Source of the DNA: a virus
Reading direction: 5' to 3' (one strand)
Virus record (IMG/VR): IMGVR_UViG_3300042389_001027
Coordinates: 64,619 to 128,618 of that record
Length of the DNA: 64,000 nucleotides
Positions 25,141 through 54,448 of this stretch are shown piece after piece (the stretch's first letter is position 1; every line of letters starts with the position of its first letter). Under the pieces are notes generated by a model. That model searched no databases. It saw only the letters and a list, made by a program, of their open reading frames with translations, and was not told the origin of the DNA. The position numbers and the translations under genes were made by a program.

Positions 25141-25173
25141 GTTTTTTCCTTTCGTTTAGTACTTACGAATACA

Positions 25174-25421: not shown

Positions 25422-25435
25422 CGAACTAATGTTCG
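25422..25435. promoter_or_regulatory. LexA (SOS) box overlapping the -10 of the HA-HTH gene
   Basis: CGAAC-TAAT-GTTCG. Confidence 0.75.
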
Positions 25436-25440
25436 GTTTC

Positions 25441-26160: not shown

Positions 26161-26165
26161 CTTCG

Positions 26166-26205: not shown

Positions 26206-26244
26206 TATTTGGTCGTACGCCGACTATTCGTCGTACCAGCAGGG

Positions 26245-27735: not shown

Positions 27736-28451
27736 GCACCAACCTTGTCAAGTGCGATTGCGTCCATGAACGATTGTGCTCGGTCTCGGAACACCATCTT
27801 GCTTGCCTTCTCGTCGCCCAACTGCTTGCGGAGCGAGTCAAATGCGTAGAAGGTGCGGAGACTGATACGACGCTCGCCTGCGTCTGCCATACGGACTGCG
27901 TATCCACGCAAATCCTCTGACAGTTTGAGTAGAGCGTTCGGGTGAGGTTGGTTGATTCGGATTGCCACGGGGAATCTGTCTTTCAGAGCCTCGGGGAGTT
28001 CCCTCATGTCCTCAATGTTGGTGGTCATGACGACGCTGAATCCGTCAAGGGGACGAACCTTGCGACCGTTGTCGGGGTTTTCCCATGACGCTGATTCGGG
28101 AGAGTCGGTCATTGCGAGGAGAGTTGCGAACACATCTCCCCCTGCCTTGTCAATCTCGTCAATCACGAGACGACCGCCACGGAGACCGTCGCCCTGCCAT
28201 GCCTTGATTGCCTGACCGTCATTCCAACGCCACTCGCCATTGGCAGAGGGCTTGTAGTGACCCTCAACTTGAGCGTTAGTCATGTCGTCGGTACAGATGA
28301 GTCGCCACGCACCGCCTGCCACATCACCCATGTTCATGCCTGCGTAGGTCTTGCCAGTTCCTGGGGGACCGAACAGAATCACACGGTCAATGCCTGCGAT
28401 AAGTGCGTCGTTGACTTCCTGCCAACAACTCGGGAGTTCTACTTGATTCAT
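27732..28451 (-). CDS. MoxR/CobS-like AAA+ ATPase
   Basis: GPPGTGKT, LVIDEIDK, TTN, ALKDRF. Confidence 0.9.
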   Translation of the reverse strand: MNQVELPSCWQEVNDALIAGIDRVILFGPPGTGKTYAGMNMGDVAGGAWRLICTDDMTNAQVEGHYKPSANGEWRWNDGQAIKAWQGDGLRGGRLVIDEIDKAGGDVFATLLAMTDSPESASWENPDNGRKVRPLDGFSVVMTTNIEDMRELPEALKDRFPVAIRINQPHPNALLKLSEDLRGYAVRMADAGERRISLRTFYAFDSLRKQLGDEKASKMVFRDRAQSFMDAIALDKVGA

Positions 28452-28645
28452 TGTTCCTTCTTTCTAGGTTTAGTCGGTTTATCTAACAAGGAGAAGTGTA
28501 TCTACTTATTAGTGATTTGTCAACTCTTTTCTGAGGTTTTTTTTCGGGAGTTTTCTCTCTCCCTCAGCAACCCCCATCTTACAGAGGGGGTGTAACACAG
28601 TAACGAACAGAGTGACCGAAAGTGTGCGCTCTGTCCGAAACTTTG

Positions 28646-29416
28646 TTAGTTGCTCACGGTTGTTCGCACTCCCTGACGGATTGCCTCAAACATGGCAAGA
28701 ATGTTCTTGTCGGGGTGAGCCAACGGTTCACCAACCTCACCCATGACTTCGGATTCACACTTGGACTTCAGGTCGTCAATCTTGTCTTGGTATGCCTGCC
28801 AGTCAAAGTCCTCGTCGTTCCAATCCAAGTCTGCGTATCCCTCAATGTCCTCAACATTCCCATCACAGGTTGCGACGAGACCGTTCTGAATACGCCCTGC
28901 CCCAACGAGACCGTTTCCAAGTTCCTCGTACTGAATGTGGAACTCCAATGTTGGGAACATTGTGGAAATGTGGTTGAGTGCGTCAATCGGGGGTGACCAC
29001 GCCGTATCAAAGGAGAAGTCAAGGTGAGTGTCTGAGTGACCGTTGAGACGAGTCTCGCAGTCGCCCCACTTTGTTCCCCAATGCGAGCAACACCAGTCGT
29101 ACCAGTCTTTCGCACCATACTTGGCGAGATTTGCCTGATTTCGTGCGTAGCCTTCCGCATTGCGAGTGACCAGTTCGTTGTACCATTCCTCGGTGATTTC
29201 GCCCTTCTCCATTGACACCTTCCAGTTGGGGTGTTCCTCGGGAGTGAAGAATCCTGCGGTGGATTCCTTGAGTTCGGTCGGAATCGGATAGAGACGACTA
29301 ATAATGTCGTATGTGTCGTGTCCTTCGTCGTTCACGGTGTGGACTCGCTGAAGGAAGTCCGTGATGGACTCAGGGTCTCCCTGAATCGTCATAGTGTTGT
29401 TACACCAGTTGGGCAT
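28646..29416 (-). CDS. DUF1281/YubB ferredoxin-like protein
   Basis: MPNWCNN...WYDW...WGTKW...FDTAWSPP. Confidence 0.85.
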   Translation of the reverse strand: MPNWCNNTMTIQGDPESITDFLQRVHTVNDEGHDTYDIISRLYPIPTELKESTAGFFTPEEHPNWKVSMEKGEITEEWYNELVTRNAEGYARNQANLAKYGAKDWYDWCCSHWGTKWGDCETRLNGHSDTHLDFSFDTAWSPPIDALNHISTMFPTLEFHIQYEELGNGLVGAGRIQNGLVATCDGNVEDIEGYADLDWNDEDFDWQAYQDKIDDLKSKCESEVMGEVGEPLAHPDKNILAMFEAIRQGVRTTVSN

Positions 29417-29614
29417 TTGCTTACTCCTTATTTCTAGTAGGTATCGGAGAGTGTATCTCCTTTTTATTTCGCTGTCAACTTTATCCGAAGATTTTTTTGA
29501 CTGCTTGCCCCACACCTTACAGAAGGGGTGTGACACAGATAGAACGAACACAACCATCAGAAGTGTGCGCTCTTTCTAAACAAACTTTACCAAAGGGGTG
29601 TAACACAGTTCCCC

Positions 29615-29635
29615 TGTGGATAAGCCTGTGGATAA
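29615..29635. promoter_or_regulatory. Pair of perfect DnaA boxes
   Basis: TGTGGATAA at 29615 and 29627. Confidence 0.75.
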
Positions 29636-29809
29636 CTTGGACACCATAAATACATACGCATACACATGAACGCACGGCTATACGCCACCGTCGCTACTTG
29701 TAAGCACACACACAAGCACACGCTCGCGCGCGCGTAAGCCCCGTGGGCGCATCACCAGATGCGGGACTCCCCATGCCCGCTTCCGCAGCGGGGCTCGTGG
29801 GGAAGATGG

Positions 29810-30007
29810 TTAGTCAATGACCACCCATCTGTCGCCCGCTTCTGCGATAAGTCCGAGTTGTGAGCCATTGTCCCACTTCACGAAAACAGTTCCGAAGTCG
29901 TCAATGAAATCAACATTCCCTTCGTCGCCTTGTCGTAGAAGTGTGTATGCGTCATTCGTGTACTGGAGTCGCACACGCTTTCCGAGAAGATACGAAAGAT
30001 GTTTCAT
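29810..30007 (-). CDS. DUF4314-like protein
   Basis: G.RVRL....D.Y..L..G.EG.V.FIDD.GTV.V.WDNGS.LGL. Confidence 0.85.
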   Translation of the reverse strand: MKHLSYLLGKRVRLQYTNDAYTLLRQGDEGNVDFIDDFGTVFVKWDNGSQLGLIAEAGDRWVVID

Positions 30008-30258
30008 TTGTTTGCCCAATACTCCTCGTGAGATAACCACAGTTTGCCGTTGTCTTGCCAACGCTTCGTGAGCATGAAAACAATCTCACGGAACTCTGAA
30101 CGGGTAACTTCCCAATCCAATAGGTTCTCATCAAACTGATTGTTCTCAAACTCAAGAATGATTGTGGCAATCGCTTCATGCCCACTCAATGTTCCGAGTG
30201 AGTAGTAATGCTCGTCAATCACATTCATTATTTCTTCGTATTTGTTTGTTAGTGTCAT
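30004..30258 (-). CDS. Hypothetical protein
   Basis: GAGG RBS; coupled. Confidence 0.65.
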   Translation of the reverse strand: MTLTNKYEEIMNVIDEHYYSLGTLSGHEAIATIILEFENNQFDENLLDWEVTRSEFREIVFMLTKRWQDNGKLWLSHEEYWANK

Positions 30259-30372
30259 GCCACTTCCTCGTCGTCGGGGGGCGCACAGTCGTAACAGACT
30301 CGCCCGAATGATGACCACACTTCTGAAGTGTCGTCGTGTGTGTTTTGACCGCATTGGTTACAGGTGAGAGTC

Positions 30373-30612
30373 TCAGTAGTCATCTAGGGTGTCTCCGTTT
30401 TGGTCTTGGAAGATGAGGTCTCTTGCTCGTGCGTTACGCATCATGTCAAGTGTTTCGTTCTCTATGTAGAGAATGACATCATCAAGTGTGAAGTTCATTT
30501 CTTCGCCGTTGAGAATACGGTTATCTTCTTTGAGTGTTTGGATAACTTCATCAACGCCGTATGTGGAAACCCACATCACATTTATGCGTTCGGGCATTAC
30601 TTCTAGTTCCAT
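30373..30612 (-). CDS. Hypothetical protein
   Basis: CTACTAGAAAGGA leader. Confidence 0.75.
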   Translation of the reverse strand: MELEVMPERINVMWVSTYGVDEVIQTLKEDNRILNGEEMNFTLDDVILYIENETLDMMRNARARDLIFQDQNGDTLDDY

Positions 30613-30640
30613 CTATGTGTTCCTTTCTAGTAGTTACAGC

Positions 30641-30669
30641 AACACCCCTCAGTATAAGTGAGGGGTGTT
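30641..30669. promoter_or_regulatory. Palindromic ACACCCC element flanking a -10 box
   Basis: AACACCCCTCA-GTATAAG-TGAGGGGTGTT with TATACT (minus strand) in the middle. Confidence 0.6.
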
Positions 30670-30676
30670 ATAGGGA

Positions 30677-30919
30677 TTAGCCCTCGTCTGCGTAGAGAGT
30701 TGCTTCGTCGTAATACGAGTAGTCGTAGTCCTGAAGATGACCAATCGCTTCCTCAAGAGAGTTTGCCTCAATGAGGTTTGAGTAATCCAAGTGTGGAGAT
30801 GCTGGAGTTCTTGTGGCAGAGACACGGAATAGAGTTCCGCCTAACTCTCGCACCTCTAGGTTGGGGAAGAAACTTCCCGTTCCTGTCCAGATTGCGTATT
30901 CTTGTAGTTCGTTTGTCAT
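30677..30919 (-). CDS. Hypothetical protein
   Basis: 80 aa; AAGGA RBS. Confidence 0.6.
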   Translation of the reverse strand: MTNELQEYAIWTGTGSFFPNLEVRELGGTLFRVSATRTPASPHLDYSNLIEANSLEEAIGHLQDYDYSYYDEATLYADEG

Positions 30920-31049
30920 TAGTTTCTTTTTCCTTGCCCCTTTCCAGAGCGTAGTAGTTGTTCTTATCTTCAGTATAACAGGTTATGTTAGATAAAACAA
31001 CCTGTCAGCGGAGAAACCACTCCCCGTGAGGAGTGGTCACCCTGAGTGG

Positions 31050-31565
31050 TCAGTACCAACAAATGAGCCCGTCTGCGTGTTCCGCCGCCCACTTGAGATA
31101 CCACGACGCATACTTGAGGTCTGCCGTGATGTCCTCTCCGCCCATGCGGTAAACACCATCTTCCTCGTCGCACTCGTCAAACGCCTCGTCAATGACTTGG
31201 GCAAGAGTGAGACAAGAGCCCTTTGACTTCTCTGTCCCATCTTCGCTATCGCCATAGAACGAGAAGTCATCACTATCGCCGTATCCGATTGCTTCCAAGA
31301 GGTAGTTGCCGTACTTGCCTCTGTACCAACAGTCAGTACCGAACATTCCATAGACAGGACTGCCGAGTGCTTCCTTGTCTTGCTTATTCAGTTCATTGAC
31401 ATACGGGCAACCGCCACACGCTTGCGTAGCCTGACAGTCAATGACCATCATGGTTGAGCCGTCATCTTCCGTGAGTGCCACGCCGTCTTTGTTGAGTCGT
31501 GGAGTCATCACTACAGTTCCCTGAGCCTTACAGGGGTACTGCTTCGGAATGTTGTCTAGTCCCAT
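31050..31565 (-). CDS. Hypothetical protein (MGLD-start family)
   Basis: GAAAGGA RBS and upstream promoter. Confidence 0.75.
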   Translation of the reverse strand: MGLDNIPKQYPCKAQGTVVMTPRLNKDGVALTEDDGSTMMVIDCQATQACGGCPYVNELNKQDKEALGSPVYGMFGTDCWYRGKYGNYLLEAIGYGDSDDFSFYGDSEDGTEKSKGSCLTLAQVIDEAFDECDEEDGVYRMGGEDITADLKYASWYLKWAAEHADGLICWY

Positions 31566-31596
31566 CACTTTCCTTTCGTTTAGGTTTATACAGCAC

Positions 31597-31625
31597 AGTA
31601 TAACAAGGGGGTGTCATACTGTCAA
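31597..31625 (-). promoter_or_regulatory. Sigma70-type promoter with ACACCCC spacer motif
   Basis: TTGACA-17-TATACT. Confidence 0.85.
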
Positions 31626-31632
31626 ACTCTGC

Positions 31633-31944
31633 TCAGATTGCGAACAGAGCCCTCAGGTAGTCAGGTGCGTCGTGGTTCTCGCCGTCATACACGCCCTCAG
31701 GGGAGAACGCACCAACGACGACGACATTCCCGACAAGGTGACGCTGAAACAAGATGCTCGCCGTGAGGTTCGCCTCAAGTCCCCAAATCAAACCCTCGTC
31801 ATTGACATAGCCAACGAAGTCGTCTGCCCGAACGCAGTCAATGTAGCCACCGACTGACTCTTGGAGAAACCTGAGCGAGTCTTGCTCAGGAATGTCCACA
31901 ACCTTCGGGCGGTCATCTGTCGGGATAAGGATTGCCTTTGTCAT
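31633..31944 (-). CDS. DUF3846-like protein
   Basis: LQESVGGYID.V.....YVNDEG....L..N..A...LVG.VV. Confidence 0.85.
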   Translation of the reverse strand: MTKAILIPTDDRPKVVDIPEQDSLRFLQESVGGYIDCVRADDFVGYVNDEGLIWGLEANLTASILFQRHLVGNVVVVGAFSPEGVYDGENHDAPDYLRALFAI

Positions 31945-31979
31945 GTTTGTACCTTTCTAGTAGTTACAGCGTGAGTAGG

Positions 31980-32378
31980 TCACGCCACCTTTGCGGTAGC
32001 GTCACCTTCCTCAACATTGTCATTCAGGTCATACACACGGAACTGCGTGTATGGGGTGGACTTGGTGACCGCTTCTGCGACATCTGCCTTGATGAGTCCA
32101 AGTTCTACTGCCGACTGAAACTTCTTACCGTCAATCTCGGTCTTAGTGACCTTCTTGAGCGTCGCACCGTTCACCAACTCGGTGAGGGTCTTGAGGTTGT
32201 ATGAGCGACGGTTAGCCGTGATGAGCATGACCTTTTCGTTGCCCACAATGACGGACTCCGTGCCGTTCTTGGCAAGGGCTTCCTTCAGGATTTCCTCTGC
32301 CTGCGCCTTTGCCTGCTTTGCGACTTCCAATGCTCGCTCTGCCTCAAGGAACATCTGACCTGCTTGTAATGTATTCAT
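31980..32378 (-). CDS. Hypothetical protein
   Basis: 132 aa; AAGGAG RBS. Confidence 0.8.
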   Translation of the reverse strand: MNTLQAGQMFLEAERALEVAKQAKAQAEEILKEALAKNGTESVIVGNEKVMLITANRRSYNLKTLTELVNGATLKKVTKTEIDGKKFQSAVELGLIKADVAEAVTKSTPYTQFRVYDLNDNVEEGDATAKVA

Positions 32379-32828
32379 TTCGCTACTCCTTTTAGTAGTT
32401 AGGTTTATGTGATTGAGTTTATCAGAGGGGTGTTACTTTCGCAACCTTTATTTCTGACTCACTCGGTATTTCTTATTTCCCACTTTATCAGAGGGGTGTA
32501 ACACAGTTCCCTGTAGCCCTCACCATCTATAACGAATGGCGAACCTCAAAGTGTGCGCTCATCTTATCTAGGGGGTGTGACACGGTTATCCGTACACACA
32601 TAGAACGAACAGAGCCAGCCAAAGTGTGCGCTCAATCCTAAATAAATCTTTCCAGCATCTCAACCCCCGCTTTCGGCTACCGTCGCTACTTGTAGCGCAT
32701 CTGGCATAACGCTGTGCGTTATACACGCACCAGCCCCGCATAACGCGTCGCGTTATACGCACGAGCCCCGCATCAGAAGATGCGCAGCGGGGCTTCTGGC
32801 AACTTTGTGGGAAAGTGGGAAAGTGGGC

Positions 32829-32864
32829 AAAAGAAAAACCCCCGCCCGTTTCTGAGCGAGGGTT
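32829..32864 (-). terminator. Intrinsic terminator
   Basis: GC stem with an A-tract on the plus strand. Confidence 0.75.
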
Positions 32865-32888
32865 CTTCGGTTGGATTTGTCGGGAATG

Positions 32889-33257
32889 TCACGACGGGGT
32901 GACGGTCATGCTTCCGCCAGTTGGTGCGTCGTGGTGATAAAGAACGCACTTGAGTGAGTCGCCCTCAACTGTGTATCGGAGTCGCCACTCGGTTCTGTCG
33001 GGAGTGATTGCCCGCAAAAGTTCTTCGGGAGTCCGTGCGGAGAATGTTCCGTCAATCGTTCCGTACCACACGGGGAAACCCGTAATGCGGAAACCCTGAT
33101 TGTGTTCCACGAACAATGCTTCGGTATCAAAACCGAACTGCTCTACTTGGTCACTCCAACAATCTCCCCAACATTCGGGGGCTTCATTCCACTCGCCCGC
33201 ATCTTCGTCAAAAGTTACACACGCACAAGTGTTTTGTATCTCGGTCATTGTTTCCAT
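32889..33257 (-). CDS. Hypothetical protein
   Basis: TACTAGAAAGGA leader; HHDAPTG motif. Confidence 0.75.
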   Translation of the reverse strand: METMTEIQNTCACVTFDEDAGEWNEAPECWGDCWSDQVEQFGFDTEALFVEHNQGFRITGFPVWYGTIDGTFSARTPEELLRAITPDRTEWRLRYTVEGDSLKCVLYHHDAPTGGSMTVTPS

Positions 33258-33292
33258 GATTGTCCTTTCTAGTAATGACAGCGGGGGAGTCG

Positions 33293-33745
33293 TCAGACTC
33301 CGATACCCGCATGACGCTTCGCTTCTTCCCATGTGTGACACGCAAGGTGCTTCAGGGTCTCTGTGTTGTTCTCGCCACTCTCAACCGTGTACACGCTCAC
33401 GCCGTTCCTGCGCATGACATAGACGAACTGCGCCCATGAGTATGCGCCAGTTTCTTCCGTGTACCACGCTTCGTCGGAGTCCTTGTCAATGTCGTCGTGA
33501 ACAATGCCGTAGCCGACACGAATGTTCTTCTCATCTCTGAACTCGTCGGTGTCGCCTTGCTCGTGGTCAATAACTGACCATGACGCATTGTCGTTGATGA
33601 GTGTCGTGACTACTTGTGTAATCCCGTCACGCTCTACAAGTGCGCCGAGTACGCCAACCATTCGTTCAGGGTAGTTATCCCAATGAGCGTAACGCCCACG
33701 CCAACCCTGCGCCCGTTCTACTGCGATGATTGCTCTAGTTGCCAT
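33293..33745 (-). CDS. Conserved phage hypothetical protein (MATR...Y.HWD.YP family)
   Basis: MATRAII...YAHWDNYPE..G..L. Confidence 0.8.
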   Translation of the reverse strand: MATRAIIAVERAQGWRGRYAHWDNYPERMVGVLGALVERDGITQVVTTLINDNASWSVIDHEQGDTDEFRDEKNIRVGYGIVHDDIDKDSDEAWYTEETGAYSWAQFVYVMRRNGVSVYTVESGENNTETLKHLACHTWEEAKRHAGIGV

Positions 33746-33819
33746 TGTGTTTATTCCTTTTCTCTAGTAGGTATTGCCCATGATACACACGGGGTGTGAC
33801 ACGGTACAGCGACGCAAGG

Positions 33820-33972
33820 TCATGGGTTCCAACGAAACCCACGACACTCACGCTTGTTGCTGACACGCTTCTTGTTCGGTATGCGTTGCGCTTTCAGAAT
33901 GTTCCTGTCTGCGAACGCCTGTCGGTCTTGGTCACTCCAACCACGACTAGGGCTAGGTCTATTAGTTGCCAT
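33820..33972 (-). CDS. Small basic hypothetical protein
   Basis: 50 aa, R/K-rich; AAGGA RBS. Confidence 0.55.
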   Translation of the reverse strand: MATNRPSPSRGWSDQDRQAFADRNILKAQRIPNKKRVSNKRECRGFRWNP

Positions 33973-33974
33973 GT

Positions 33975-34421
33975 TCAGTTTCCTTCCGTATCCATGATGT
34001 GGCGAGTCTCGCCGTGACATTTGTGGGTTGTCTTGCGAACACACTCCGCCATGCTCTGCGAGTCAATGACGAACTTCTTGTTACACTCGTGGCACTTCGC
34101 CGTGTATGAACGCTGACCCTTTGCCCATTGGTATGGGTGGATTGGCGTGTAGCCCTTGAGTCGCTCGTCAGGGAAACAAGTGATTGCTTCGTCACACTTC
34201 ACACACACGACAACCTTGACCATGTAGGTGACTCCGCCGAACACGATGGGCTCAATGTTGGAGTAACCCTTTTTGTTGTATCCGCACTTGGTACAGATAC
34301 GGTCATGGTTGGTCATGTCTGCCGAAAGTGTGGACACTTCCTTGTTGGCGATTTTCTGAACTACAGCAACTGGAATGTTTTTGTTGTTCGCTTGCTTTAC
34401 GATGTGGGCGGTGAGTTTCAT
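33975..34421 (-). CDS. DUF4258-like protein with Zn ribbons (paralogue 1)
   Basis: MKLTAHI..QA....IP; three CxxC pairs. Confidence 0.7.
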   Translation of the reverse strand: MKLTAHIVKQANNKNIPVAVVQKIANKEVSTLSADMTNHDRICTKCGYNKKGYSNIEPIVFGGVTYMVKVVVCVKCDEAITCFPDERLKGYTPIHPYQWAKGQRSYTAKCHECNKKFVIDSQSMAECVRKTTHKCHGETRHIMDTEGN

Positions 34422-34585
34422 TTCTTTTTACCTTTCTAGTAAGTTGTAATCACTCTATCACTACGGTGTAACACTAGCAACCTTATCGGATAGATTTATT
34501 TATTTATTTTGTCTTGTACTTTCTATAACGAACGGTGACATGAAAAGTGTGCGCCACTACTGAAAGTTTTTCAGAAAGATTTTTC

Positions 34586-34613
34586 CGAACAAATGTTCCC
34601 GAACAAGTGTTCG
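34586..34613. promoter_or_regulatory. Two tandem LexA boxes
   Basis: CGAACAAATGTTCC and CGAACAAGTGTTCG. Confidence 0.75.
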
Positions 34614-34667
34614 CACGGGCTTTCGGCTACCGTCGCTACTTGTAGAGACTTCCGATAAACTCGTCGC

Positions 34668-34874
34668 ATGATTGTTACTTGTGAGTTCTGCGGATTTCAG
34701 ATTGACACGGGCAGACACGCCCACTCGGTGAAAGTAACGGGCTGGGTAAAGACGAAACAAGGCAAACCTGGCACCACCATTACACGGGCATCAGCCCCGA
34801 TGGGTTATGCGTGCCAGACCTGTCTGGAGTCCCGCGACGGGCGCGGCGATGCGGGGCTCGCGACGCTCTTCTGA
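34668..34874 (+). CDS. Small Zn-finger protein (leaderless)
   Basis: CEFCG...ACQTC; TAAACT-N6-ATG. Confidence 0.6.
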   Translation: MIVTCEFCGFQIDTGRHAHSVKVTGWVKTKQGKPGTTITRASAPMGYACQTCLESRDGRGDAGLATLF

Positions 34875-34896
34875 TGCGGGCATAAACGCGGGCATC

Positions 34897-34926
34897 AAAA
34901 AACCCGCCCCCAACGCGGAGGGCGGG
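34897..34926 (-). terminator. Intrinsic terminator
   Basis: CCCGCCC/GGGCGGG stem plus A6. Confidence 0.8.
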
Positions 34927-34947
34927 CTGATTGAGTTCTTCGCGGAA

Positions 34948-35148
34948 TCAGAGTTGTTCGGAAACTGTACGAATCTGAATGAATCTGAAGTGCTTACGGA
35001 ACTTATTGGCTTTGGCTTCTGCTTGAGCCTTGCCGTGAACTCCGTCAAAGATGACCCACTCGCATGGGAGGAGTCCGAACTCTCCCGAGAACTCGGGGTC
35101 ATCTCTCGTGATGGCTGTATGAGCCAAGACTATGTATGTCGGGTACAT
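34948..35148 (-). CDS. Hypothetical protein
   Basis: CTACTAGAAAGGA leader. Confidence 0.7.
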   Translation of the reverse strand: MYPTYIVLAHTAITRDDPEFSGEFGLLPCEWVIFDGVHGKAQAEAKANKFRKHFRFIQIRTVSEQL

Positions 35149-35333
35149 ATCTATCCTTTCTAGTAGTTGCTTATCACTATAACGAAAGGGTGTTACATAG
35201 TTGTGCGCTAACCGCCAAACTTTTTCTTTTCTTTTGAGCGCACACTTTTGACCACTCTTATCGTTACTGTATTACACCCCTTAGTTATAGTGGTGAGTAT
35301 TCCAGTAACTACTAGAAAGAAAGGAAAAACCAA

Positions 35334-35504
35334 ATGAGTCAGAAAGTCACCTCAATCCGAGTCTCGGAACAAAAGAGTGAAACCAACGGCGGAGTTGTTT
35401 ACTTCGTCACTTGGAACAACGGAACGACAATCCGTATGGAACTCGCACCTGACATGGCAGAACATCTGTCATGGCACTACGGCGTAGCAATCACCGCCCG
35501 CTAA
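35334..35504 (+). CDS. Small hypothetical protein (56 aa, not in the ORF track)
   Basis: CTACTAGAAAGAAAGGA leader; MSQKVTSIRV...ITAR; followed by a terminator. Confidence 0.75.
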   Translation: MSQKVTSIRVSEQKSETNGGVVYFVTWNNGTTIRMELAPDMAEHLSWHYGVAITAR

Positions 35505-35533
35505 TCCAGCCAAATCTCAACCGACTAGCAGAG

Positions 35534-35572
35534 AGCCCTCTCCCCAGAAATGGGGCGGGGGCTTTTTGTTTT
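35534..35572 (+). terminator. Intrinsic terminator
   Basis: AGCCCTCTCCCC...GGGGCGGGGGCT plus T-tract. Confidence 0.8.
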
Positions 35573-35753
35573 CCCCGCTATACGCCACCGTCGCTACTTG
35601 CTGTTAGCGAAAACGCTAACACTTTCCCAGAAGATGAGCGCACGAGTCCCGTGGGTCGGCGGCGCGGCGGGGCTACTGGGTTGATGTCGCTGGTTCTGGG
35701 CGGATTCATTTCTGGTTTCGGGCAAAAAAAAATCCACAACCCGCATCTTGGGC

Positions 35754-35875
35754 TGTGGATAATGTTGTGGATAAAGTTATTCACAGGCTGTGGATTTCGT
35801 TGTGGAAATCGCTTGCTTGCCTGTGGATACCCGTACAGCACTTATCCACAGGAGACACCTGCCCCCTGTGGATAA
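35754..35875. promoter_or_regulatory. DnaA-box cluster (4 perfect, about 4 degenerate)
   Basis: TGTGGATAA at 35754, 35766, 35867; TTATCCACA at 35842; TTATTCACA at 35777. Confidence 0.8.
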
Positions 35876-35893
35876 AACCAAACTCCCGAGAGT

Positions 35894-36172
35894 TCAGTCC
35901 TCGCACTCGCAATCTTCGTGAGCCTCGTAGCACCAACCGCACTCGTCGCTGTAGTCGCTGTCCTCGTCGCTTCCGAAGTCAATCCTGACCCACTTGGCGA
36001 TGGTGGCGAGAACATTGTCGTAGTCGCCTGAGGTGGCTTCCTGACGGAACTCGCTGATGATGTCACGGGCAACGCCCGACCGCCTGAGAGCGTCGCTCAC
36101 AGAGCCGATGAGAGAAAACGCATTCCCATCTACCCCAATGAGGTTCACTCCGATGTTCGGATACTTGACCAT
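35894..36172 (-). CDS. Conserved phage hypothetical protein
   Basis: V.L.G.DGNAFS.IG.V..ALRR.G...EA.SGDYD..L. Confidence 0.8.
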   Translation of the reverse strand: MVKYPNIGVNLIGVDGNAFSLIGSVSDALRRSGVARDIISEFRQEATSGDYDNVLATIAKWVRIDFGSDEDSDYSDECGWCYEAHEDCECED

Positions 36173-36382
36173 TACCTATCTCCTTTTCTATTTCTAGTAG
36201 TTGCCTTCATTGTACTGAAGGGGTGTGGCAGAGTTATTTCACCCTCCCGAGAGTTCGCTTCTCCATTGCCGATTCTCACGCCGACGCAAGAGACCGTTGT
36301 GGGTCTTTCGCCCGTGACGCTTCAGGGTGCGACAACACCCGTACGGGCATTGCCTCTCTGCTCGCTTGTTGTGGAGCATTGC

Positions 36383-36829
36383 TCACTTCTCCTTCATGAT
36401 GTGTCGGGTCTTGCCCTTACAGGTGTGCGTAGTGTCTCGCTTACATTGTGCCAAGTCCATTGACTGAATCATGAACCTACGACCGCAATCGTGACACTTA
36501 GCCGAGTACGACCGCATGCCCTTATCCCATTGGTCTCTACGAATGGGTGTATTGCCCTCTAGGGCTTCGTCTGCGTAGACCGTGATGGCTTCGTCGCACT
36601 TGACGCATACAACGACCTTCACGCCGTATTCCTTGCCCTGAAACACAATGGGCGAGTAGGTGCGCCACTCTTGCTTGATAGCACCGCACCAACGGCAACG
36701 GCAGTCTCGCTTCGTGATGTCCTGCTGTGCCTTGTGAATGCCGACCTGCTGGAGAACGACCTTCTCCACTACGGGAATCGGGATTCGCTTCTGTTCGGCT
36801 TGGTTCTTGATGTGCTGTGTCATTCGCAT
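36383..36829 (-). CDS. DUF4258-like protein with Zn ribbons (paralogue 2)
   Basis: Aligns over its length with 33975-34421 (VKVVVCVKCDEAIT identical). Confidence 0.75.
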   Translation of the reverse strand: MRMTQHIKNQAEQKRIPIPVVEKVVLQQVGIHKAQQDITKRDCRCRWCGAIKQEWRTYSPIVFQGKEYGVKVVVCVKCDEAITVYADEALEGNTPIRRDQWDKGMRSYSAKCHDCGRRFMIQSMDLAQCKRDTTHTCKGKTRHIMKEK

Positions 36830-36935
36830 TTGCTTACTCCTTCTAGTAGGTATGCCCTCACTATAACGGAGGGGTGTAATACATAAACGTATCGGAGGCA
36901 CAAAAGTGTGCGTGTCATTCGTCACATCTCTTGAC

Positions 36936-37020
36936 AGAACAAGTGTTCGCCTCCCCGACCGAACGAGTGTTCGCCGAACGAGTGTTCCCCGAACAGGTGT
37001 TCGTACCGAACAAGTGTTCG
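36936..37020. promoter_or_regulatory. Array of five LexA boxes
   Basis: GAAC-N4-GTTC at 36936, 36960, 36975, 36990, 37007. Confidence 0.85.
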
Positions 37021-37061
37021 CCCGTGAGACAAAGAGACCCAAAGTGTCTCACCGTCTCGCC

Positions 37062-37184
37062 TGTGGATAAACCTGTGGAAAACTATGTTGCTGACTACAA
37101 GTAAGTTATCCACACCCTGTGGAAAACCTTATCCCCACCCTGTGGACAAACTTATCCACACGCTGTGAATAAACCTGTGGAAAA
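37062..37184. promoter_or_regulatory. Array of about nine DnaA boxes
   Basis: Perfect boxes at 37062, 37106, 37152; TTWTNCACA or 1-mismatch boxes at 37074, 37118, 37129, 37141, 37164, 37176. Confidence 0.85.
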
Positions 37185-37358
37185 CTTTTCCGCCAAAAAA
37201 CTTGACAAACCAAAAACTTTATGCGAATCCGAAACTAGAAACCAGATGCCCGCCCCGTAGCCCCGTGTGCTACGCGCTGGCATAGCAGTCCCGTGGGTGT
37301 AAACCCCGTGCGGGGCTCGTGAGGTGAGTGGTCGCCCAACTCGTGGATTCGGGGAATA

Positions 37359-37398
37359 AAAAATGGGTCGCCACCCCGTATGTAGGGAAACGACCCAT
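37359..37398 (-). terminator. Intrinsic terminator
   Basis: ATGGGTCG...CGACCCAT stem plus A-tract. Confidence 0.7.
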
Positions 37399-37417
37399 GA
37401 AGGTAACCCGAAGAATC

Positions 37418-37639
37418 TCAGTCAATCAGGAACTCAGGGCGAGCGAGGGCAAGGGCTTCGCCAATCTCAATCGCCGTAAATGCCTGAGGGTTATCCAAGT
37501 CTCTGACCGTCACGAAGTTAGCCCCAACTGTCGGGTCATTGGCTATCTCCGCAAGGTTGCCGTACGCCTGACAGACCGCATCTAAGTGGGATTCGCAATC
37601 CTCGTAGACCATCTCCCAAGTCACTATGTACCTAGCCAT
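37418..37639 (-). CDS. Hypothetical protein
   Basis: AGGAG RBS. Confidence 0.7.
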   Translation of the reverse strand: MARYIVTWEMVYEDCESHLDAVCQAYGNLAEIANDPTVGANFVTVRDLDNPQAFTAIEIGEALALARPEFLID

Positions 37640-37750
37640 TTGTGTTGTCTCCTATCTGCCCCTGAGGGCGGTTGTAAGGGGCTGGAAAGCCCAAAGCCCC
37701 CGTGTCACCCAATGAGGCAACACGGAGGCGTATGTGAGGCGTGGAAGGGC

Positions 37751-38266
37751 TTACGCCAACTTCCTCGCACACACTGGTCCGATACCCCGTGCGACTGATT
37801 CGGGGTCGTTCAGGAATCGCCCGCAGATGACGCAGTGACCGCACTCGTGTCCGAGCGCACCTGCCTGCTCAACGGTGAGCGCAACAATCGCACCCGTGCT
37901 GATTCGGTTGGCGAGGGTGACCATACCGCCACGCTCAAATGTCCACGAAGTGGCGAGAGCCTGCTTGGTCATTGCGTAGGTGTGTCCACCGCCGTTACGG
38001 GCAGGGCGCACGAACCATACGGTTGAGTGAGCCGATTCCCAGTAGAACCCAACGGGGGGAACTGGCAACGCCTGAGCACCATTGCGTTGGACTTGGCGAG
38101 CCTGAGCCTTGTTGCGCATGGAAACCGCAGAGCGAATCTGAGCCTCCGTGAGCGTACGGTGACGACGGTAATACTTGGCGAGATTCTGAGCGAAGTCAGA
38201 CCAAGTCTGATTGCCGAGCCAAACTGCGAGGTCTGCTACCTCGGAAGCGTCTAGTTGAGTGGACAT
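37751..38266 (-). CDS. DUF6011-like Zn-finger protein
   Basis: C-terminal CVICGRFLNDPESVARGIGPVCARK. Confidence 0.85.
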   Translation of the reverse strand: MSTQLDASEVADLAVWLGNQTWSDFAQNLAKYYRRHRTLTEAQIRSAVSMRNKAQARQVQRNGAQALPVPPVGFYWESAHSTVWFVRPARNGGGHTYAMTKQALATSWTFERGGMVTLANRISTGAIVALTVEQAGALGHECGHCVICGRFLNDPESVARGIGPVCARKLA

Positions 38267-38305
38267 TGCAACCCCTTTCATGGGTCTAGTAGGTTTACGA
38301 AATCA

Positions 38306-38334
38306 ACTATACAACGGGGGTGTTACATAGTCAA
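38306..38334 (-). promoter_or_regulatory. Sigma70-type promoter with ACACCCC spacer motif
   Basis: TTGACT-17-TATAGT. Confidence 0.8.
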
Positions 38335-38617
38335 GGATTATCTGAAAAAAGTGTAAATAAACTTCGCCAGACATTTGCCAGCCCAACCCAACCGCTGTCC
38401 CAAACCGAACTCACCAAACCCCCACAGCCCCCGCTTTCCGCCACCGTCGCCCTTGTAGCGCAATCCCACACGCACCACCCGCAGGGGCGCACGCACCCCC
38501 ATAGCCCCGCAGCGGCGCATAACGCGACACGTTACGTCACAGCCCCGCTTGACAGAGTCGGCGGCGGGACTCGCGGGGTCGGGCGAGCAGAATCTTGGTC
38601 AAAATCTTGGGTAAAGA

Positions 38618-38642
38618 AAAACCCCGCCATTTCTGACGGGGT
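38618..38642 (-). terminator. Intrinsic terminator
   Basis: ACCCCGCCA/TGACGGGGT stem plus A-tract. Confidence 0.7.
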
Positions 38643-38661
38643 GATTCTGTGGTTGTGAGGT

Positions 38662-38829
38662 TCAGGAGTTGGCGTTTGTTTTTTCGTTGCTGTGTGATTG
38701 CTCAACGATTCTGTTTAGCCAGAACCGACTAGCACCGAATGCGTACGGGTAACCGTGCTGTTCCACCATCTCGGGGAGTTGGTCTAGTAAATCCTTGATT
38801 GCCTTTATGTCTGCCTTGGTGAGTTCCAT
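38662..38829 (-). CDS. Small hypothetical protein (55 aa, not in the ORF track)
   Basis: CTACTAGAAAGG leader; MELTKADIKAIKDLL... Confidence 0.7.
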   Translation of the reverse strand: MELTKADIKAIKDLLDQLPEMVEQHGYPYAFGASRFWLNRIVEQSHSNEKTNANS

Positions 38830-39013
38830 GTTTACCTTTCTAGTAGTTGCCCCTACCTTAGCGGAGGGGTGTTGTATAGATAACGGATAGACCGAGGGGA
38901 TTAGTGCGCTATCTCAATGTGACGCACGCCACACCCAACAATGCGAGACTATGTTACACCCATCTGTTAGATTTATCTCATAGAAGTACTAGACCCATGA
39001 AAGGGGGGAAATA

Positions 39014-39340
39014 ATGAATACACGAATCCGTGAAGGTCGCCAATGTGACCCGAAGGTACTCCGTGACCAAATCGGAATGATGACGGTCTTGGCAGTATCG
39101 GGTGGGCGATGGGGTGCTATCCGTGACAACGAAGGCGAACCCATCGGTGTCATCTTTCCGTGCGGAACAAATCGCACGGTAGAGGTCACCCTGTCCTTTT
39201 GGGACACCTACACCGTACGGCGCTACCGCCAAGTGGTGAGAGGCGAGCGCAGAGGCGAGGACATTCTTGAGCACGAAGCAACGAATGTCTACTGCGACGA
39301 AATCAGCGAAGCGGTCTACACCGCTAGTTGTTGGAAATAA
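39014..39340 (+). CDS. Conserved phage hypothetical protein
   Basis: DTYTVRR...NVYCDE motif; followed by a terminator. Confidence 0.8.
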   Translation: MNTRIREGRQCDPKVLRDQIGMMTVLAVSGGRWGAIRDNEGEPIGVIFPCGTNRTVEVTLSFWDTYTVRRYRQVVRGERRGEDILEHEATNVYCDEISEAVYTASCWK

Positions 39341-39365
39341 TCCCACCAGCGCACAGAACCAAGAG

Positions 39366-39393
39366 ACCCGCCCCCACAAAGGGCGGGTTTTTT
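39366..39393 (+). terminator. Intrinsic terminator
   Basis: ACCCGCCC/GGGCGGGT plus T-tract. Confidence 0.85.
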
Positions 39394-39619
39394 GATGCCC
39401 CAACACAAACGAACCCGAACAACCCCCAGAAGAACACCCCCGCAGCCCCGCCGCACCTTGCTGGCAACGGGACTTCTGGACGAATAAATCAACCCCAGAA
39501 CCAGGTCATCCGCCAGGTCAACCAGAACAATCAAAAAAAGTCAAGTTTTTTCTGACAAAAAGACACCCAAGGGTACTTGCCCCCAAAATCAACAAAAAAA
39601 ACAAGAAATCTAGTAACAT

Positions 39620-41548
39620 TTGCCTGTGCCTGAGACGCAACTATTACTTGCCGACGACCATCTTGTCCTCATCTTCCCGTACGACAAAGACCAGGTTGAT
39701 GAAATCAAACGCATCAAGAACTCCAAATGGGACAAGATAGCGAAAGTCTGGAGAGTCCCGATGACAAGTCTTAATGAGGCGCGGGACTTCGCAGCCAAGC
39801 ACGGCTTCTGGGTGGAACCAGATGTACTTCGCTTTGACCTCCCAGAACCAGACAACCAGGTGTTCGGGGTCCTCCTAGAAAAAGATTGGATTTACCTCTC
39901 TTTTGCCTTTGACCCAGTAAAAGTCAAGGCGGTCAAACAAATACCGAGCATAACTTGGCACGCAAAGACCAAATCATGGCGTGCGCCCCTCGCTTCCATC
40001 CACGAATGTATTGATTGGGCGAAGAAGTTTCGTGAAGTTTTACCGCAGGACCTAGAAGACCTGGCTGCGGGAATCCTCCAGAAGCATCAAGAATCCGTGA
40101 AAGAGTCCCGTGCTACCGATGCAGACATCTCTGTTGCGGGGCTGCCGCTGCTCCCGTACCAGAGAGCGGGCGTAAAGTACGCCGCAGCCGCACGCAGGAC
40201 CTTTATCGCCGACGATATGGGGTTAGGGAAAACCATTCAGGCGATTGCGACCGTGGAATATGTGTACGACTCGTACCCAGCGGTTGTGGTCTGCCCACCG
40301 AACTTGGTGCTGAACTGGGTAAATGAGTACCAAAAGTGGTTACCTAGCAGGAAAGTTGTTGCCGTAACCGACCGAAAGTCCTTCCCCGAGGAAGAGTTTG
40401 ATGTTCTTGTTGTCGGATACTCCAACATCACCCATTGGGAAAAGCGTCTGACGGGGATGCGTTCGTACGTGTTTGACGAATCCCATTACATCAAGACCCC
40501 AACCTCCCAAAGAACTAAATCTGCCATCAAGATGTCCAAATCAGCCCCGCCAGAAGGAATCGTTCTGGCTTTGACGGGAACCCCAGTCACGAATCGTCCA
40601 GCCGAGTACGCATCCCAACTGGACGCAATCGGTCGTTTGGATAAGTTTGGAGGACTTTGGGGGTTTTACCGACGGTATTGCGGTGCTTTCCGAGACAGAT
40701 TTGGTCAATGGAACATCTCTGGACACAGCAACCTGGACGAACTCAACGAAAAACTCCGAGGAAACTGCTACATACGCAGAACCAAAGACCAGGTTCTGGA
40801 GGACCTGCCGCCAGTCCGCCATGCTCCGCTCGTGGTCAGCGGGACTTCAGCGGCGATGAAGGAATACCGAAAGGCGGAGGAGGACATCGTTGAGTACCTG
40901 GTTGCCCGAGCGAAGGAACTCGCCGAGGAACTGGGTGTTTCACCAAAGTCAGCCGCTGTTCTCGCAAAAATCAAAGCCGAATCCAACGAACACATGGTGA
41001 AGTTGAGTGTTTTGCGCCGTCTAGCCGCCAAAGCCAAGATGGAAGCAGCGAAAGAAATCATAGAAGCACACATTGAGGCTGGTCAGAAAGTTGTTGTTGC
41101 TGCCCACCACAGGGACATCGTTGATGAACTCGCAGCCAGGTTCGGGGACATGAAAATCCAGGGCGGGATGAAGGTGGAAGATGTTGAGGCTGGGAAGTCC
41201 CGTTTTCAGAATGAACCCGTCGGGACTGCTCCCGTGATGGTGCTCAGTATCCAAGCCGCGAAGACTGGGCATACTTTGACCGCAGCGCAAGATGTTTTGT
41301 TTATGGAGTTGCCATGGACGCCAGCCGACGTTGACCAAACTTATTCAAGATGCCACCGACTTGGGCAGAAAGGTTCAGTCACGGCGACTTATCTTTTGTG
41401 TGAGGGAACGGTGGACCAGCAAATCTATGACCTCATTGAGGCGAAGCGAAGCATTGTGAATGTCGCTACCGATGGGGGCGAAGTTGATAAAGCGGAGTCC
41501 GTTGGCTCTGCGCTCGTCGGGTTGTTCACCGAACGAGGCTTGACTTGA
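39620..41548 (+). CDS. SNF2-family helicase with two N-terminal HARP-like domains (SMARCAL1-like)
   Basis: ADDMGLGKT, DESH, LTGTP, RCHRLGQ; two F.YD/FD...W....W.VP repeats. Confidence 0.9.
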   Translation: MPVPETQLLLADDHLVLIFPYDKDQVDEIKRIKNSKWDKIAKVWRVPMTSLNEARDFAAKHGFWVEPDVLRFDLPEPDNQVFGVLLEKDWIYLSFAFDPVKVKAVKQIPSITWHAKTKSWRAPLASIHECIDWAKKFREVLPQDLEDLAAGILQKHQESVKESRATDADISVAGLPLLPYQRAGVKYAAAARRTFIADDMGLGKTIQAIATVEYVYDSYPAVVVCPPNLVLNWVNEYQKWLPSRKVVAVTDRKSFPEEEFDVLVVGYSNITHWEKRLTGMRSYVFDESHYIKTPTSQRTKSAIKMSKSAPPEGIVLALTGTPVTNRPAEYASQLDAIGRLDKFGGLWGFYRRYCGAFRDRFGQWNISGHSNLDELNEKLRGNCYIRRTKDQVLEDLPPVRHAPLVVSGTSAAMKEYRKAEEDIVEYLVARAKELAEELGVSPKSAAVLAKIKAESNEHMVKLSVLRRLAAKAKMEAAKEIIEAHIEAGQKVVVAAHHRDIVDELAARFGDMKIQGGMKVEDVEAGKSRFQNEPVGTAPVMVLSIQAAKTGHTLTAAQDVLFMELPWTPADVDQTYSRCHRLGQKGSVTATYLLCEGTVDQQIYDLIEAKRSIVNVATDGGEVDKAESVGSALVGLFTERGLT

Positions 41549-41573
41549 CAATATAACACCCCCATGATATACT
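41545..41573 (+). promoter_or_regulatory. Sigma70-type promoter with ACACCCC spacer motif
   Basis: TTGACA-17-TATACT. Confidence 0.85.
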
Positions 41574-41604
41574 TACTTTATACCTACTAGAAAGGACTAG
41601 AAGT

Positions 41605-41832
41605 ATGGAATCAGGATATCTAAACGGGAGTCGTTGGTGGGTCACCCTCAACTACAACTCCACACGCAAGTTCAGTATCAGTTACTTGGCTAAAGGGGCA
41701 AGCAGAATGTCTAAACACGACATTGTGACTTACCGTGAAGGTGCGCCACACTACGAGGCGTATACGACAGAAACGGGCAAAACCATACCGCAGTTTGTGG
41801 CGAAAGCACTTTGGGAGTTCATAAACCAATAA
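41605..41832 (+). CDS. Hypothetical protein
   Basis: CTACTAGAAAGGA leader; own promoter and terminator. Confidence 0.75.
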   Translation: MESGYLNGSRWWVTLNYNSTRKFSISYLAKGASRMSKHDIVTYREGAPHYEAYTTETGKTIPQFVAKALWEFINQ

Positions 41833-41850
41833 CTAAAAACCAAACCAAGG

Positions 41851-41882
41851 AGCCCACCCGTCAAAAGGTGGGCTTTTTCTTT
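41851..41882 (+). terminator. Intrinsic terminator
   Basis: AGCCCACC/GGTGGGCT plus T-tract. Confidence 0.85.
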
Positions 41883-41952
41883 GCCCCTTCCCGTTAGCCC
41901 CGCACGACCAGTTGCGCGGCGGGGCTGCGGGGTCTATTCTGCCGACGGTTAG

Positions 41953-42026
41953 CCTCCGTGATGCGTCTGGTTGACGCAGGGTGTCTTATACACACCTGTA
42001 GCAGGGTTCAATCCCCTGACGGAGGA
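41953..42026 (+). tRNA. tRNA-Ile(TAT), atypical
   Basis: Acceptor CCTCCGT/ACGGAGG; D arm TGCG/CGCA; anticodon arm GGTGT-CTTATAC-ACACC; T arm CAGGG-TTCAATC-CCCTG; G at position 8; no encoded CCA. Confidence 0.7.
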
Positions 42027-48838: not shown

Positions 48839-48852
48839 AGAACATTTGTTCG
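48839..48852. promoter_or_regulatory. LexA box in a divergent promoter region
   Basis: AGAAC-ATTT-GTTCG immediately before the -10 of the gene at 48867. Confidence 0.65.
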
Positions 48853-54415: not shown

Positions 54416-54448
54416 CAATCCACAACCTGTGGAAAAACCTGTGGACAA
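54416..54448. promoter_or_regulatory. Small cluster of degenerate DnaA boxes
   Basis: CAATCCACA, TGTGGAAAA, TGTGGACAA at 12-bp period. Confidence 0.55.

Follow-up and report, generated by a model that had tools for sequence, protein, structure and literature searches.

Why would a phage keep a row of LexA-type palindromes and a row of DnaA boxes next to each other in non-coding DNA? The question is raised by an island in the IMG/VR virus record IMGVR_UViG_3300042389_001027 (128,618 bp, GC content 49%), the second half of which (64619-128618), a stretch of 64,000 nucleotides, we refer to as the window; positions are those of the window unless the genome is named. The island extends from the promoter module of the gene on its left (36859-36912) to a hairpin with a T run (37358-37398), and an earlier note on the window had proposed that it is a decoy for host LexA and DnaA. 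We conclude that the island is real and selected and that its ligands are very probably these two host proteins. The reading that we prefer, and offer tentatively, is that of a docking array which arose by amplification of promoter operators, would bind host LexA and DnaA, and would act on phage transcription and timing both locally and by titration.

The palindromes of the first array, GAAC-N4-GTTC, follow each other at start-to-start distances of 24, 15, 15, and 17; three of the five are perfect CGAAC-N4-GTTCG 14-mers and the other two lack one flanking base. We take this 14-mer to be the LexA operator (SOS box) of the Gram-positive/actinobacterial type. Beyond the LexA arms, the palindromes of the array are alike in the longer form CCGAAC-RR-GTGTTCG. 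The window contains 12 GAAC-N4-GTTC palindromes versus 1.40 +/- 1.26 in 100 dinucleotide shuffles, none of which reached 12, and the maximum per 85 bp in 300 whole-genome shuffles was one, compared with the five observed. By reading, no -10 or -35 element lies inside the array, and the nearest promoter elements are 60-280 bp away. The second array consists of DnaA boxes (TTATCCACA with at most one mismatch), three of them perfect and six with one mismatch, spaced at 12, 32, 12, 11, 12, 11, 12, and 12 and mostly alternating in orientation; it includes three tandem 23-bp units with two converging boxes each. Such boxes number 35 in the window versus 14.06 +/- 3.67 in 100 shuffles (none reached 35), and nine per 125 bp compares with a maximum of three in 300 whole-genome shuffles. 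The earlier note had described five palindromes in 85 bp and about nine DnaA boxes at an 11-12-bp period; both descriptions are borne out, far above chance, the second save for one 32-bp gap.

The record is the complete 128.6-kb genome of an uncultured myovirus that infects freshwater Actinobacteria. Its ends share an exact 127-bp overlap, which resembles the overlap of a circular assembly, and the public sequencing runs that contain it are lake and river metagenomes. Genes for the sheath, portal, prohead protease, capsid, and terminase bear out the earlier assignment of this DNA to a phage; the genome also encodes a class II ribonucleotide reductase, SSB, an SNF2 helicase, an SbcD-like nuclease, RuvC, and a methylase. 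That the host is of the actinobacterial type, as the same note had assumed, is supported by two WhiB genes above the Pfam cut-off, together with an Rpf-type transglycosylase, DUF732, and DUF6011; the phage ribonucleotide reductase, used as a query against genome contigs to find the host, had no relative among them. Six-frame searches of the complete genome identified no LexA DNA-binding domain, S24 peptidase, DnaA domain IV, or DnaA AAA+ domain (PF01726, PF00717, PF08299, and PF00308), and a search of the whole genome identified no tyrosine or serine recombinase (integrase).

Box types at promoters of the phage and its relatives

Every perfect DnaA box of the 128.6-kb genome, nine in all, falls within an 8-kb stretch (29615-37160). 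Outside the island, the genome contains three further DnaA clusters and four further intergenic LexA boxes, which brings the totals per genome to approximately nine intergenic LexA boxes and 19 DnaA boxes in four clusters (Table 1). Palindromes at 1173, 1557, and 47536 are intragenic (in a collagen-like fiber gene and in SSB, with a conserved peptide) and were set aside. The overlap with, or abutment on, a core promoter expected of LexA operators is seen at the single boxes 25422 and 48839. The gene that follows the former (25441-25836) encodes a protein with an HA domain and a sigma-70 region 4 helix-turn-helix (HTH), and the latter is also upstream of a metallophosphoesterase gene (48054-48755). 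A LexA doublet at 34587/34601 lies approximately 55-82 nt 5' of the leaderless start of a zinc-ribbon gene on the plus strand (34668-34874) and is also upstream of gene 33975-34421. This gene and the one to the left of the island (36383-36829) are paralogues (52% identity, E value 2e-45). Because the islands upstream of the two paralogues align, with array boxes 4-5 on the doublet, the LexA quintet is best seen as an expanded doublet.

The SNF2 helicase is common to 41 viral loci, with 27-94% identity. In the more distant relatives among these helicase-sharing loci, the DNA of the island is not conserved, but the types of site are, and none of 50,697 phage records matched the region at near identity. 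With L136 set aside, the relatives have 19 direct DnaA pairs; 13 of these are followed, 51-56 nt downstream, by the ATG of an open reading frame (ORF) of at least 40 amino acids, and a further three pairs show the same arrangement by eye. In these promoters (L007-L012, L019, L022, and L024), the pair is followed by 17 nt, a -35-like hexamer (+18 to +23), a CATAAT-like -10, and a leaderless ATG, a fixed layout which suggests that early transcription in the relatives is wired to host DnaA. The TTGACA that follows the DnaA array of the island stands in the place of this -35. In homologues of the zinc-ribbon gene in L006 and L011, a perfect DnaA box occupies the slot that holds the LexA doublet here; because one orthologue thus has a LexA doublet and the other a DnaA box, the two types of site appear to be interchangeable inputs.

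Related genomes differ in which of the two box types they carry. We counted 10 perfect DnaA boxes, as pairs and singles only, and no perfect LexA 14-mers in G001; one and six, respectively, in G002, which is complete; nine and two in G003; none and seven (in one array) in G004; and none and three in G005, with reversed-pattern controls giving 0-1. This mosaic points to accessory, interchangeable inputs. Both box types also occur together in the relatives L136 and L022/L029: in L136, four LexA-type boxes are followed by approximately 17 DnaA-like boxes, between homologues of the genes at 25.8 and 26.2 kb of the window. In L061, seven boxes lie just 3' of the helicase gene. The earlier note had made conservation of the boxes in related phages a test of its proposal. 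Site types and clusters do recur, but the island DNA itself is not conserved, and G004 and G005 are without DnaA boxes.

Four metagenome contigs are strain variants of the phage, with 98% and 93-95% identity. All four keep the five LexA boxes and have a tenth DnaA box in an extra 12-bp unit. Over the five sequences, variable positions amount to 0 of 60 in the LexA boxes, 2 of 81 in the DnaA boxes, and 16 of 450 in the rest of the island; because strain divergence is too low (approximately two LexA-box changes would be expected), this is only a hint of constraint on the boxes. At both variable DnaA-box positions, variant L297 has the consensus base. The same variant has an insertion of approximately 950 bp, between 38462 and 38595, that constitutes a second LexA and DnaA cassette: four DnaA boxes with a terminator, a paralogue of the 92-amino-acid gene, a promoter module, three LexA-type boxes, an inverted repeat, and five DnaA boxes. 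The two cassettes are only 73-78% identical, with the sites retained; both arms of the inverted repeat are kept and its spacer is changed, and the TTGACA tract is nearly identical. Given this duplicate, the whole unit behaves as a duplicating module.

Under the docking-array reading, the array would have grown by amplification of operator sites that are used at the early promoters of the family, and host LexA and DnaA would occupy the island. Locally, they would either feed into the rightward promoter-like element or gate it, and they would shield the promoter of the zinc-ribbon-like gene to the left of the island (36383-36829). By titration, rising numbers of genome copies would relieve LexA repression of the LexA-wired genes of the phage, and DnaA would be spread thinner over its DnaA-wired promoters, with the host SOS regulon and host initiation affected as by-products. 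We infer the titration part because the sites far exceed the need of one promoter and because their number varies between strains; a role in the phage's own transcription is at least as likely as one directed at the host, since the boxes are ordinary parts of promoters in this family. If the sites bind, an abundant family of freshwater actinophages reads or manipulates the DNA damage (LexA) and replication readiness (DnaA) of its host through bare DNA.

Several observations weigh against this reading. The LexA array is upstream of both neighboring promoter elements, by approximately 190-280 bp in the case of the TTGACA and by 60-150 bp in that of the minus-strand core promoter, which is not a classical repressor geometry, and the TTGACA is followed by a poor -10 and only a 4-codon ORF. 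None of this phage's five direct DnaA pairs has the ATG at 51-56 nt that is found in the relatives. The second large DnaA cluster (35754-35875) lies in 3' untranslated DNA, after the stop of gene 35894-36172 and before the terminator of that gene (35760-35732), and is left unexplained by promoter models. The numbers of sites per genome given above are modest, and the invariance of the LexA boxes is not significant at such low strain divergence. Finally, a phage protein may have the same specificity. We regard as doubtful a further-reaching proposal, in which the arrays would form a protein-free and amplifiable two-factor DNA timer that titrates both regulators as the genome replicates, switching on LexA-repressed phage genes, running down DnaA-dependent early promoters, de-repressing the host SOS response, and starving the host origin, and in which the pairing of LexA and DnaA sites, as also seen in T5 and unrelated environmental phages, would be a general, convergent phage device.

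Comparable elements in T5 and in unrelated DNA

The DnaA part of such an element is already in print for T5-like phages, as a kind of element that is known but unexplained. In 25 of these phages, eight DnaA boxes, in pairs 3 bp apart, lie in inverted repeats of the untranslated injection-stop region (10.1101/866236). The repeats of this first-step-transfer or injection-stop region in T5 are arranged as IRC-spacer-IRD and IRD'-spacer-IRC', and Davison (2020) argues that the modules are not origins; LexA has no occurrence in the searched text of that paper (10.1101/866236). Scanning positions 5500-10500 of T5 (AY587007), we found exact CTGT-N8-ACAG boxes at 6137-6152 and 9332-9347, where 0.055 were expected in shuffles. 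They lie in inverted repeats D and D' of the left terminal repeat and have DnaA boxes next to them, at 6118 and 9358/9370. Because the form of the palindrome changes with the LexA motif of the host, this is the best argument for host LexA as the ligand and for the pairing as a recurring device. With it, the repeat-rich untranslated early region of T5, which has been a puzzle for 40 years, can be compared across phyla.

On the one hand, the T5 region and the island are alike: both are non-coding, lie among small early genes of a large virulent phage, and combine DnaA pairs 3 bp apart, inverted repeats, and LexA boxes in modules that flank early-gene cassettes. In the island, the pairs are 11-12 bp apart from start to start, and an inverted repeat with 8-bp arms adjoins them in the non-coding tract. 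On the other hand, the two share no sequence homology, the hosts belong to different phyla, and the palindrome is GAAC-N4-GTTC here and CTGT-N8-ACAG in T5. In the island, a single tract holds five tandem LexA boxes together with 9-10 DnaA boxes, whereas T5 has one plus 2-4 per repeat. T5 has a long terminal repeat and two-step injection, neither of which is known in this phage, where there is only the 127-bp end overlap. It is therefore worth asking whether the arrays handle DNA in the manner envisaged for T5, by tethering or pausing incoming or replicating DNA on membrane-associated DnaA, together with LexA. The DnaA pairs in the injection stop signal of T5-like phages (10.1101/866236), the two exact LexA boxes beside those of T5, and the modules flanking small-early-gene cassettes here would agree with this. 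However, the mechanism is itself only proposed for T5, there is no homology to T5, and this myovirus has no sign of long terminal repeats, its end overlap looking like that of a circular assembly; we consider such a role very unlikely.

Colicin genes have double SOS boxes. Promoter P1 of phage GIL01 has SOS boxes that act with gp7, a case of host LexA used by a phage (PMC4551915), and the E. coli uvrB promoter has LexA and DnaA sites in one control region (PMC6015884). In common with these systems, the island has LexA boxes of the host type in tandem approximately 15 bp apart, and LexA and DnaA sites can share a region. In contrast to their 1-4 sites overlapping a defined promoter, the island has five boxes off any clear core promoter, in a phage without an integrase.

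Arrays of both types are found in unrelated DNA. Tandem LexA-type boxes occur at no fewer than 118 viral loci, and 35 among the 118 listed have 3-7 boxes in 120 bp; DnaA arrays stand beside such boxes in two of the matches listed, L136 and the unrelated contig L166, where three LexA-type boxes are followed by four DnaA boxes. Perfect DnaA pairs were likewise found at 118 loci or more; among the 118 listed, 25 have at least five boxes in 200 bp, and no more than five of the 118 are related to this phage. In another unrelated contig, L198, two TCGAAC-N4-GTTCGA boxes surround three DnaA boxes, and 14 further metagenome contigs have 3-7 GAAC-N4-GTTC palindromes at a 15-bp period. The GC content of these 14 (L290-L296, L298-L302, L304, and L305) ranges from 39 to 67%; most share no protein with the phage, and some of the arrays may be intragenic. 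A scan of bacterial genomes for a DnaA box behind two LexA-type boxes gave 10 matches, none informative for the phage: eight represent one conserved Chloroflexia locus beside genes without a family, one is upstream of an actinomycete ImuB-like SOS gene, and one is beside a TetR gene. The Chloroflexia site (L308-L312 and L314-L316), which comprises two LexA-type palindromes, a perfect DnaA box, and two DnaA-like words, comes after an enolase-superfamily gene and before an ORF without a family.

These arrays bear on whether the sites serve phage-encoded proteins, as iterons or operators, or are neutral tandem expansions. The shared CCGAAC-RR-GTGTTCG form is what recent duplicates or iterons would have, the phage does encode uncharacterized DNA-binding proteins (a MarR-like winged helix at 15095-15583 and the protein with HA and sigma-4 HTH domains at 25441-25836), and arrays with the same core adjoin a winged-helix gene in the unrelated L159. 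However, the arrays in other contigs keep the LexA arms and vary the 4-nt spacers, the palindrome in T5 takes the form of E. coli LexA, and the nine perfect copies of the universal DnaA 9-mer in one 8-kb stretch are matched by perfect boxes in relatives. Moreover, the sites are kept in the diverged paralogous cassette of L297, and in L011 the family of the 148-amino-acid protein encoded to the left of the island adjoins an island with a DnaA box and without a LexA box. We thus regard phage-encoded ligands or neutral expansion as highly improbable.

Replication and titration

Six-frame searches of the complete genome identified none of DNA_pol_A, DNA_pol_B, DNA_pol3_alpha, DnaB_C, Prim-Pol, DnaG zinc ribbon, and Bac_DnaA. 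Because no replicative polymerase, helicase, or primase families were found, the phage probably relies on the host replisome, and a DnaA-dependent phage origin stays a live rival to the docking array, if an unlikely one. In such an origin, the DnaA array of the island and the cluster at 35754-35875 would recruit host DnaA, which would open the DNA and load the host helicase, and the LexA array would gate firing. A small gene cassette lies between the two DnaA arrays, much as dnaA lies between box clusters in some bacterial origins. The dense DnaA clusters described above are common in unrelated viral contigs, and published phage annotations interpret clusters of this kind as origins (PMC11512268; PMC12484599). 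The order of LexA-type boxes, DnaA boxes, and AT-richer or repeat-rich DNA is common to L136, L166, and the window. With DnaA-dependent origins (oriC, plasmid, and P1-type), the island shares a dense DnaA array, a second repeat family, an AT-richer tract, and the lack of replisome genes of its own; it differs from them in the apparent weakness of its candidate unwinding element, its alternating boxes, and the absence of an adjacent initiator gene. It also differs from iteron origins, in that the LexA-type palindromes are irregularly spaced rather than phased direct repeats.

Other evidence speaks against an origin. The least stable adjoining 50-mer (37195-37245), in which three AAAAACTT-like repeats can be seen by eye, ranks only in the top 4.6% of the genome for low stability, no DnaA-trio-like run of triplets was seen by eye, and alternating box orientation disfavors a single head-to-tail DnaA filament. 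The genome-wide minimum of the cumulative GC skew, at approximately 39.4 kb of the window, would fit an origin, but it does not discriminate, because it is 2.4 kb off and coincides with a switch of the direction of genes and their transcription. The relatives are more telling. G001-G005 have no DNA_pol_A, DnaB_C, or DNA_pol3_alpha, and the DnaA boxes of G001 are confined to pairs and singles. Because relatives without the same polymerase and helicase families have few perfect DnaA boxes (one in G002, none in G004 and G005) and the high-GC variant of the box, TTGTCCACA, is not enriched in the relatives' records, the family replicates without DnaA boxes. In addition, one strain (L297) has a second cassette, and the comparable modules of T5 are argued not to be origins (10.1101/866236). 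The step from DnaA boxes to an origin is thus unsafe in phage annotation: in this family most boxes belong to promoters, and close relatives can dispense with them. As a side observation, no polymerase (A, B, or Pol III alpha) or DnaB is recognizable in this genome (G000) and the relatives G001-G005.

The remaining question is whether the arrays are aimed at the host. The earlier note had interpreted them as a protein-free means of host takeover, a decoy that soaks up LexA, turning host SOS on, and DnaA, blocking host initiation, on a scale that rises with phage copies. Part of this interpretation stands: the boxes are of the host type, they are more than one promoter needs, their number varies between strains (9 versus 10 DnaA boxes), and the pairing recurs. 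The part that is weakened is the aim at the host, in that the same boxes are ordinary parts of promoters in the phage family, the array is an operator expansion, and some relatives are without DnaA boxes. A decoy of this kind would further agree with the absence of a gene under or directly after the arrays, with the fluid copy number between strains, with the location of arrays in different islands in different relatives (L136 and L061), and with the 15-bp-period palindromes of the 14 metagenome contigs. However, selection on the sites can be explained without a host target, because sites of these types are built into promoters of the phage itself; one site type is wholly absent in some relatives, and the number of sites per genome is modest. 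We therefore consider the decoy quite unlikely.

Extra clusters of DnaA boxes, such as E. coli datA, the clusters of B. subtilis, and a Streptomyces cluster, titrate DnaA. Like the datA-type clusters, the island has DnaA boxes of the high-affinity type away from the chromosomal origin that could lower free DnaA as copies rise; unlike datA, it is carried by a phage and coupled to a LexA array, and neither an IHF site nor a DnaA-ATP hydrolysis function is known for it. Decoy arrays work in engineered systems, and examples include synthetic arrays in E. coli (PMC7826281), tandem repeats in yeast (PMC3322331), and response-regulator decoys (PMC8599769). The principle is the same, in that a factor is sequestered by many high-affinity sites and its target promoters respond more sharply or at a shifted level, but these arrays are engineered or chromosomal and the island is phage-borne. 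In the literature searched, we found no natural phage decoy for LexA or DnaA.

The rest of the island and its neighborhood

The features of the island and the other sites of the two types are collected in Table 1.

Table 1. Positions of the arrays, of other elements in and next to the island, and of further LexA-type and DnaA sites in the window
Feature	Position	Strand	Remarks
Five GAAC-N4-GTTC palindromes	starts 36937, 36961, 36976, 36991, 37008 (array 36937-37019)	.	Pattern match
Nine DnaA boxes (TTATCCACA, at most one mismatch)	37062, 37074, 37106, 37118, 37129, 37141, 37152, 37164, 37176 (array 37062-37184)	.	Pattern match; repeat families D9 and D16
148-amino-acid Cys-rich (zinc-ribbon-like) early gene	36383..36829	-	Nearest minus-strand gene downstream of the island
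Early-promoter module of the minus-strand gene	36859..36912	-	Repeat family; GGGGTGTAA..TATAG-type core plus upstream AAAGTGTGCG
Inverted repeat GTGAGACA-N13-TGTCTCAC between both arrays	37024-37031 / 37045-37052	.	8-bp arms, read from the sequence
AT-richer tract with TTGACA at 37213-37218	37185..37246	+	TTGACA 18-23 nt past the last DnaA box
AGTCCCG-N17-CGGGGCT inverted repeat	37287..37317	.	One copy of a motif in many islands of the arm (repeat family D19)
Hairpin and T run	37358..37398	-	By reading; absent from the terminator scan list (loop >8)
Second large DnaA cluster	35754..35875	.	Six boxes (at most one mismatch), five perfect; 1.2 kb left of the array
Perfect DnaA-box pair (29615/29627)	29615..29635	.	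3 bp apart; another island, same arm
One-mismatch DnaA-box pair (54428/54440)	54428..54448	.	3 bp apart; pattern match
LexA-type doublet 34587/34601	34587..34612	.	Homologous to array boxes 4-5
Perfect LexA 14-mer	25422..25435	.	Spacer contains the -10 (TAATGT) of a leaderless gene with ATG at 25441
LexA-type box	48839..48852	.	Directly 5' of a TATAAC -10; GTG start at 48867

The gene to the left of the island is truly 36383-36829 and not the longer ORF 36383-37042, as it aligns with its paralogue from residue 1. In the genome and 159 loci, the six ORFs crossing the arrays had no match but themselves, and the same holds for the upstream extension of ORF 36383-37042, in line with the earlier claim that no gene lies under the arrays. 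The 148-amino-acid gene has no Pfam family, and the flanking genes have no Rep-like family. The related-locus search gave it no viral relative, and a later tblastn search gave one homologue, in L011. The protein was considered as a binder of the palindromes, which is unlikely, given that the L011 homologue adjoins an island with a DnaA box and no palindrome. A search of the protein atlas found nothing for the 92-amino-acid neighbor.

The early-promoter module has at least 10 copies in 24000-42000 (repeat families D1-D3, D8, and D14) and precedes nearly every small gene in the leftward arm. Its layout is GCGCACACTTT, approximately 20 nt, TGTTACACCCC, a TATAGT-like -10, and a CTAGAAAGG ribosome-binding site, for example at 36859-36912, 35236-35292, and 29514-29613. 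Two further elements had been pointed out beside the arrays in the earlier note. The CRP-like half site at 36911-36926, which has two mismatches to TGTGA-N6-TCACA and overlaps the promoter-associated repeat AAAGTGTGCG, was rejected, since matches with at most two mismatches are at chance level in the window (31 versus 43.3 expected). The inverted repeat (37024-37052), in contrast, is there, with 8-bp arms and a 13-nt spacer, and its inner part is a weak terminator-like site on the minus strand in the terminator scan. The hairpin on the right is probably the terminator of gene 37418-37639 and the right edge of the island. Searched at Rfam gathering thresholds, the sequence yielded only a tRNA.

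Inverted repeats of the type AGYCCCG-N17/18-CGGGRCT recur in intergenic islands (37287-37317, 35637-35675, and 29735-29800) and could be an RNA hairpin or a protein site. A polar motif of approximately 27 nt, of the GCTTTCGGCTACCGTCGCTACTTGTAG type, is always on the plus strand of the leftward arm (27018, 29677, 32669, 34619, 35577, and 38433), and its copy at 34619 occupies the -35/spacer region of a leaderless plus-strand promoter. Similar CCGCCACCGT motifs come after LexA or DnaA sites in L006, L011, L294, and L301.

Contigs of four river metatranscriptomes span neighboring genes, including 36383-36829, with strand and ends unreadable and DNA carry-over possible. A 213-nt contig from one RNA library run corresponds to 36839-37050 (the promoter and the LexA array), again with possible DNA carry-over, and no RNA-library contig covers the DnaA array, although contigs cannot show absence; we draw no inference from any of these. 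Elsewhere in the genome, two ORFs of 909 and 918 amino acids (genome positions 58089-63900) have no Pfam family, and the window contains unusual cargo genes, namely a proteasome-subunit-like gene (18092-18721), a family III CoA-transferase gene (57683-58870), and a flavin halogenase-like gene (4959-6449).

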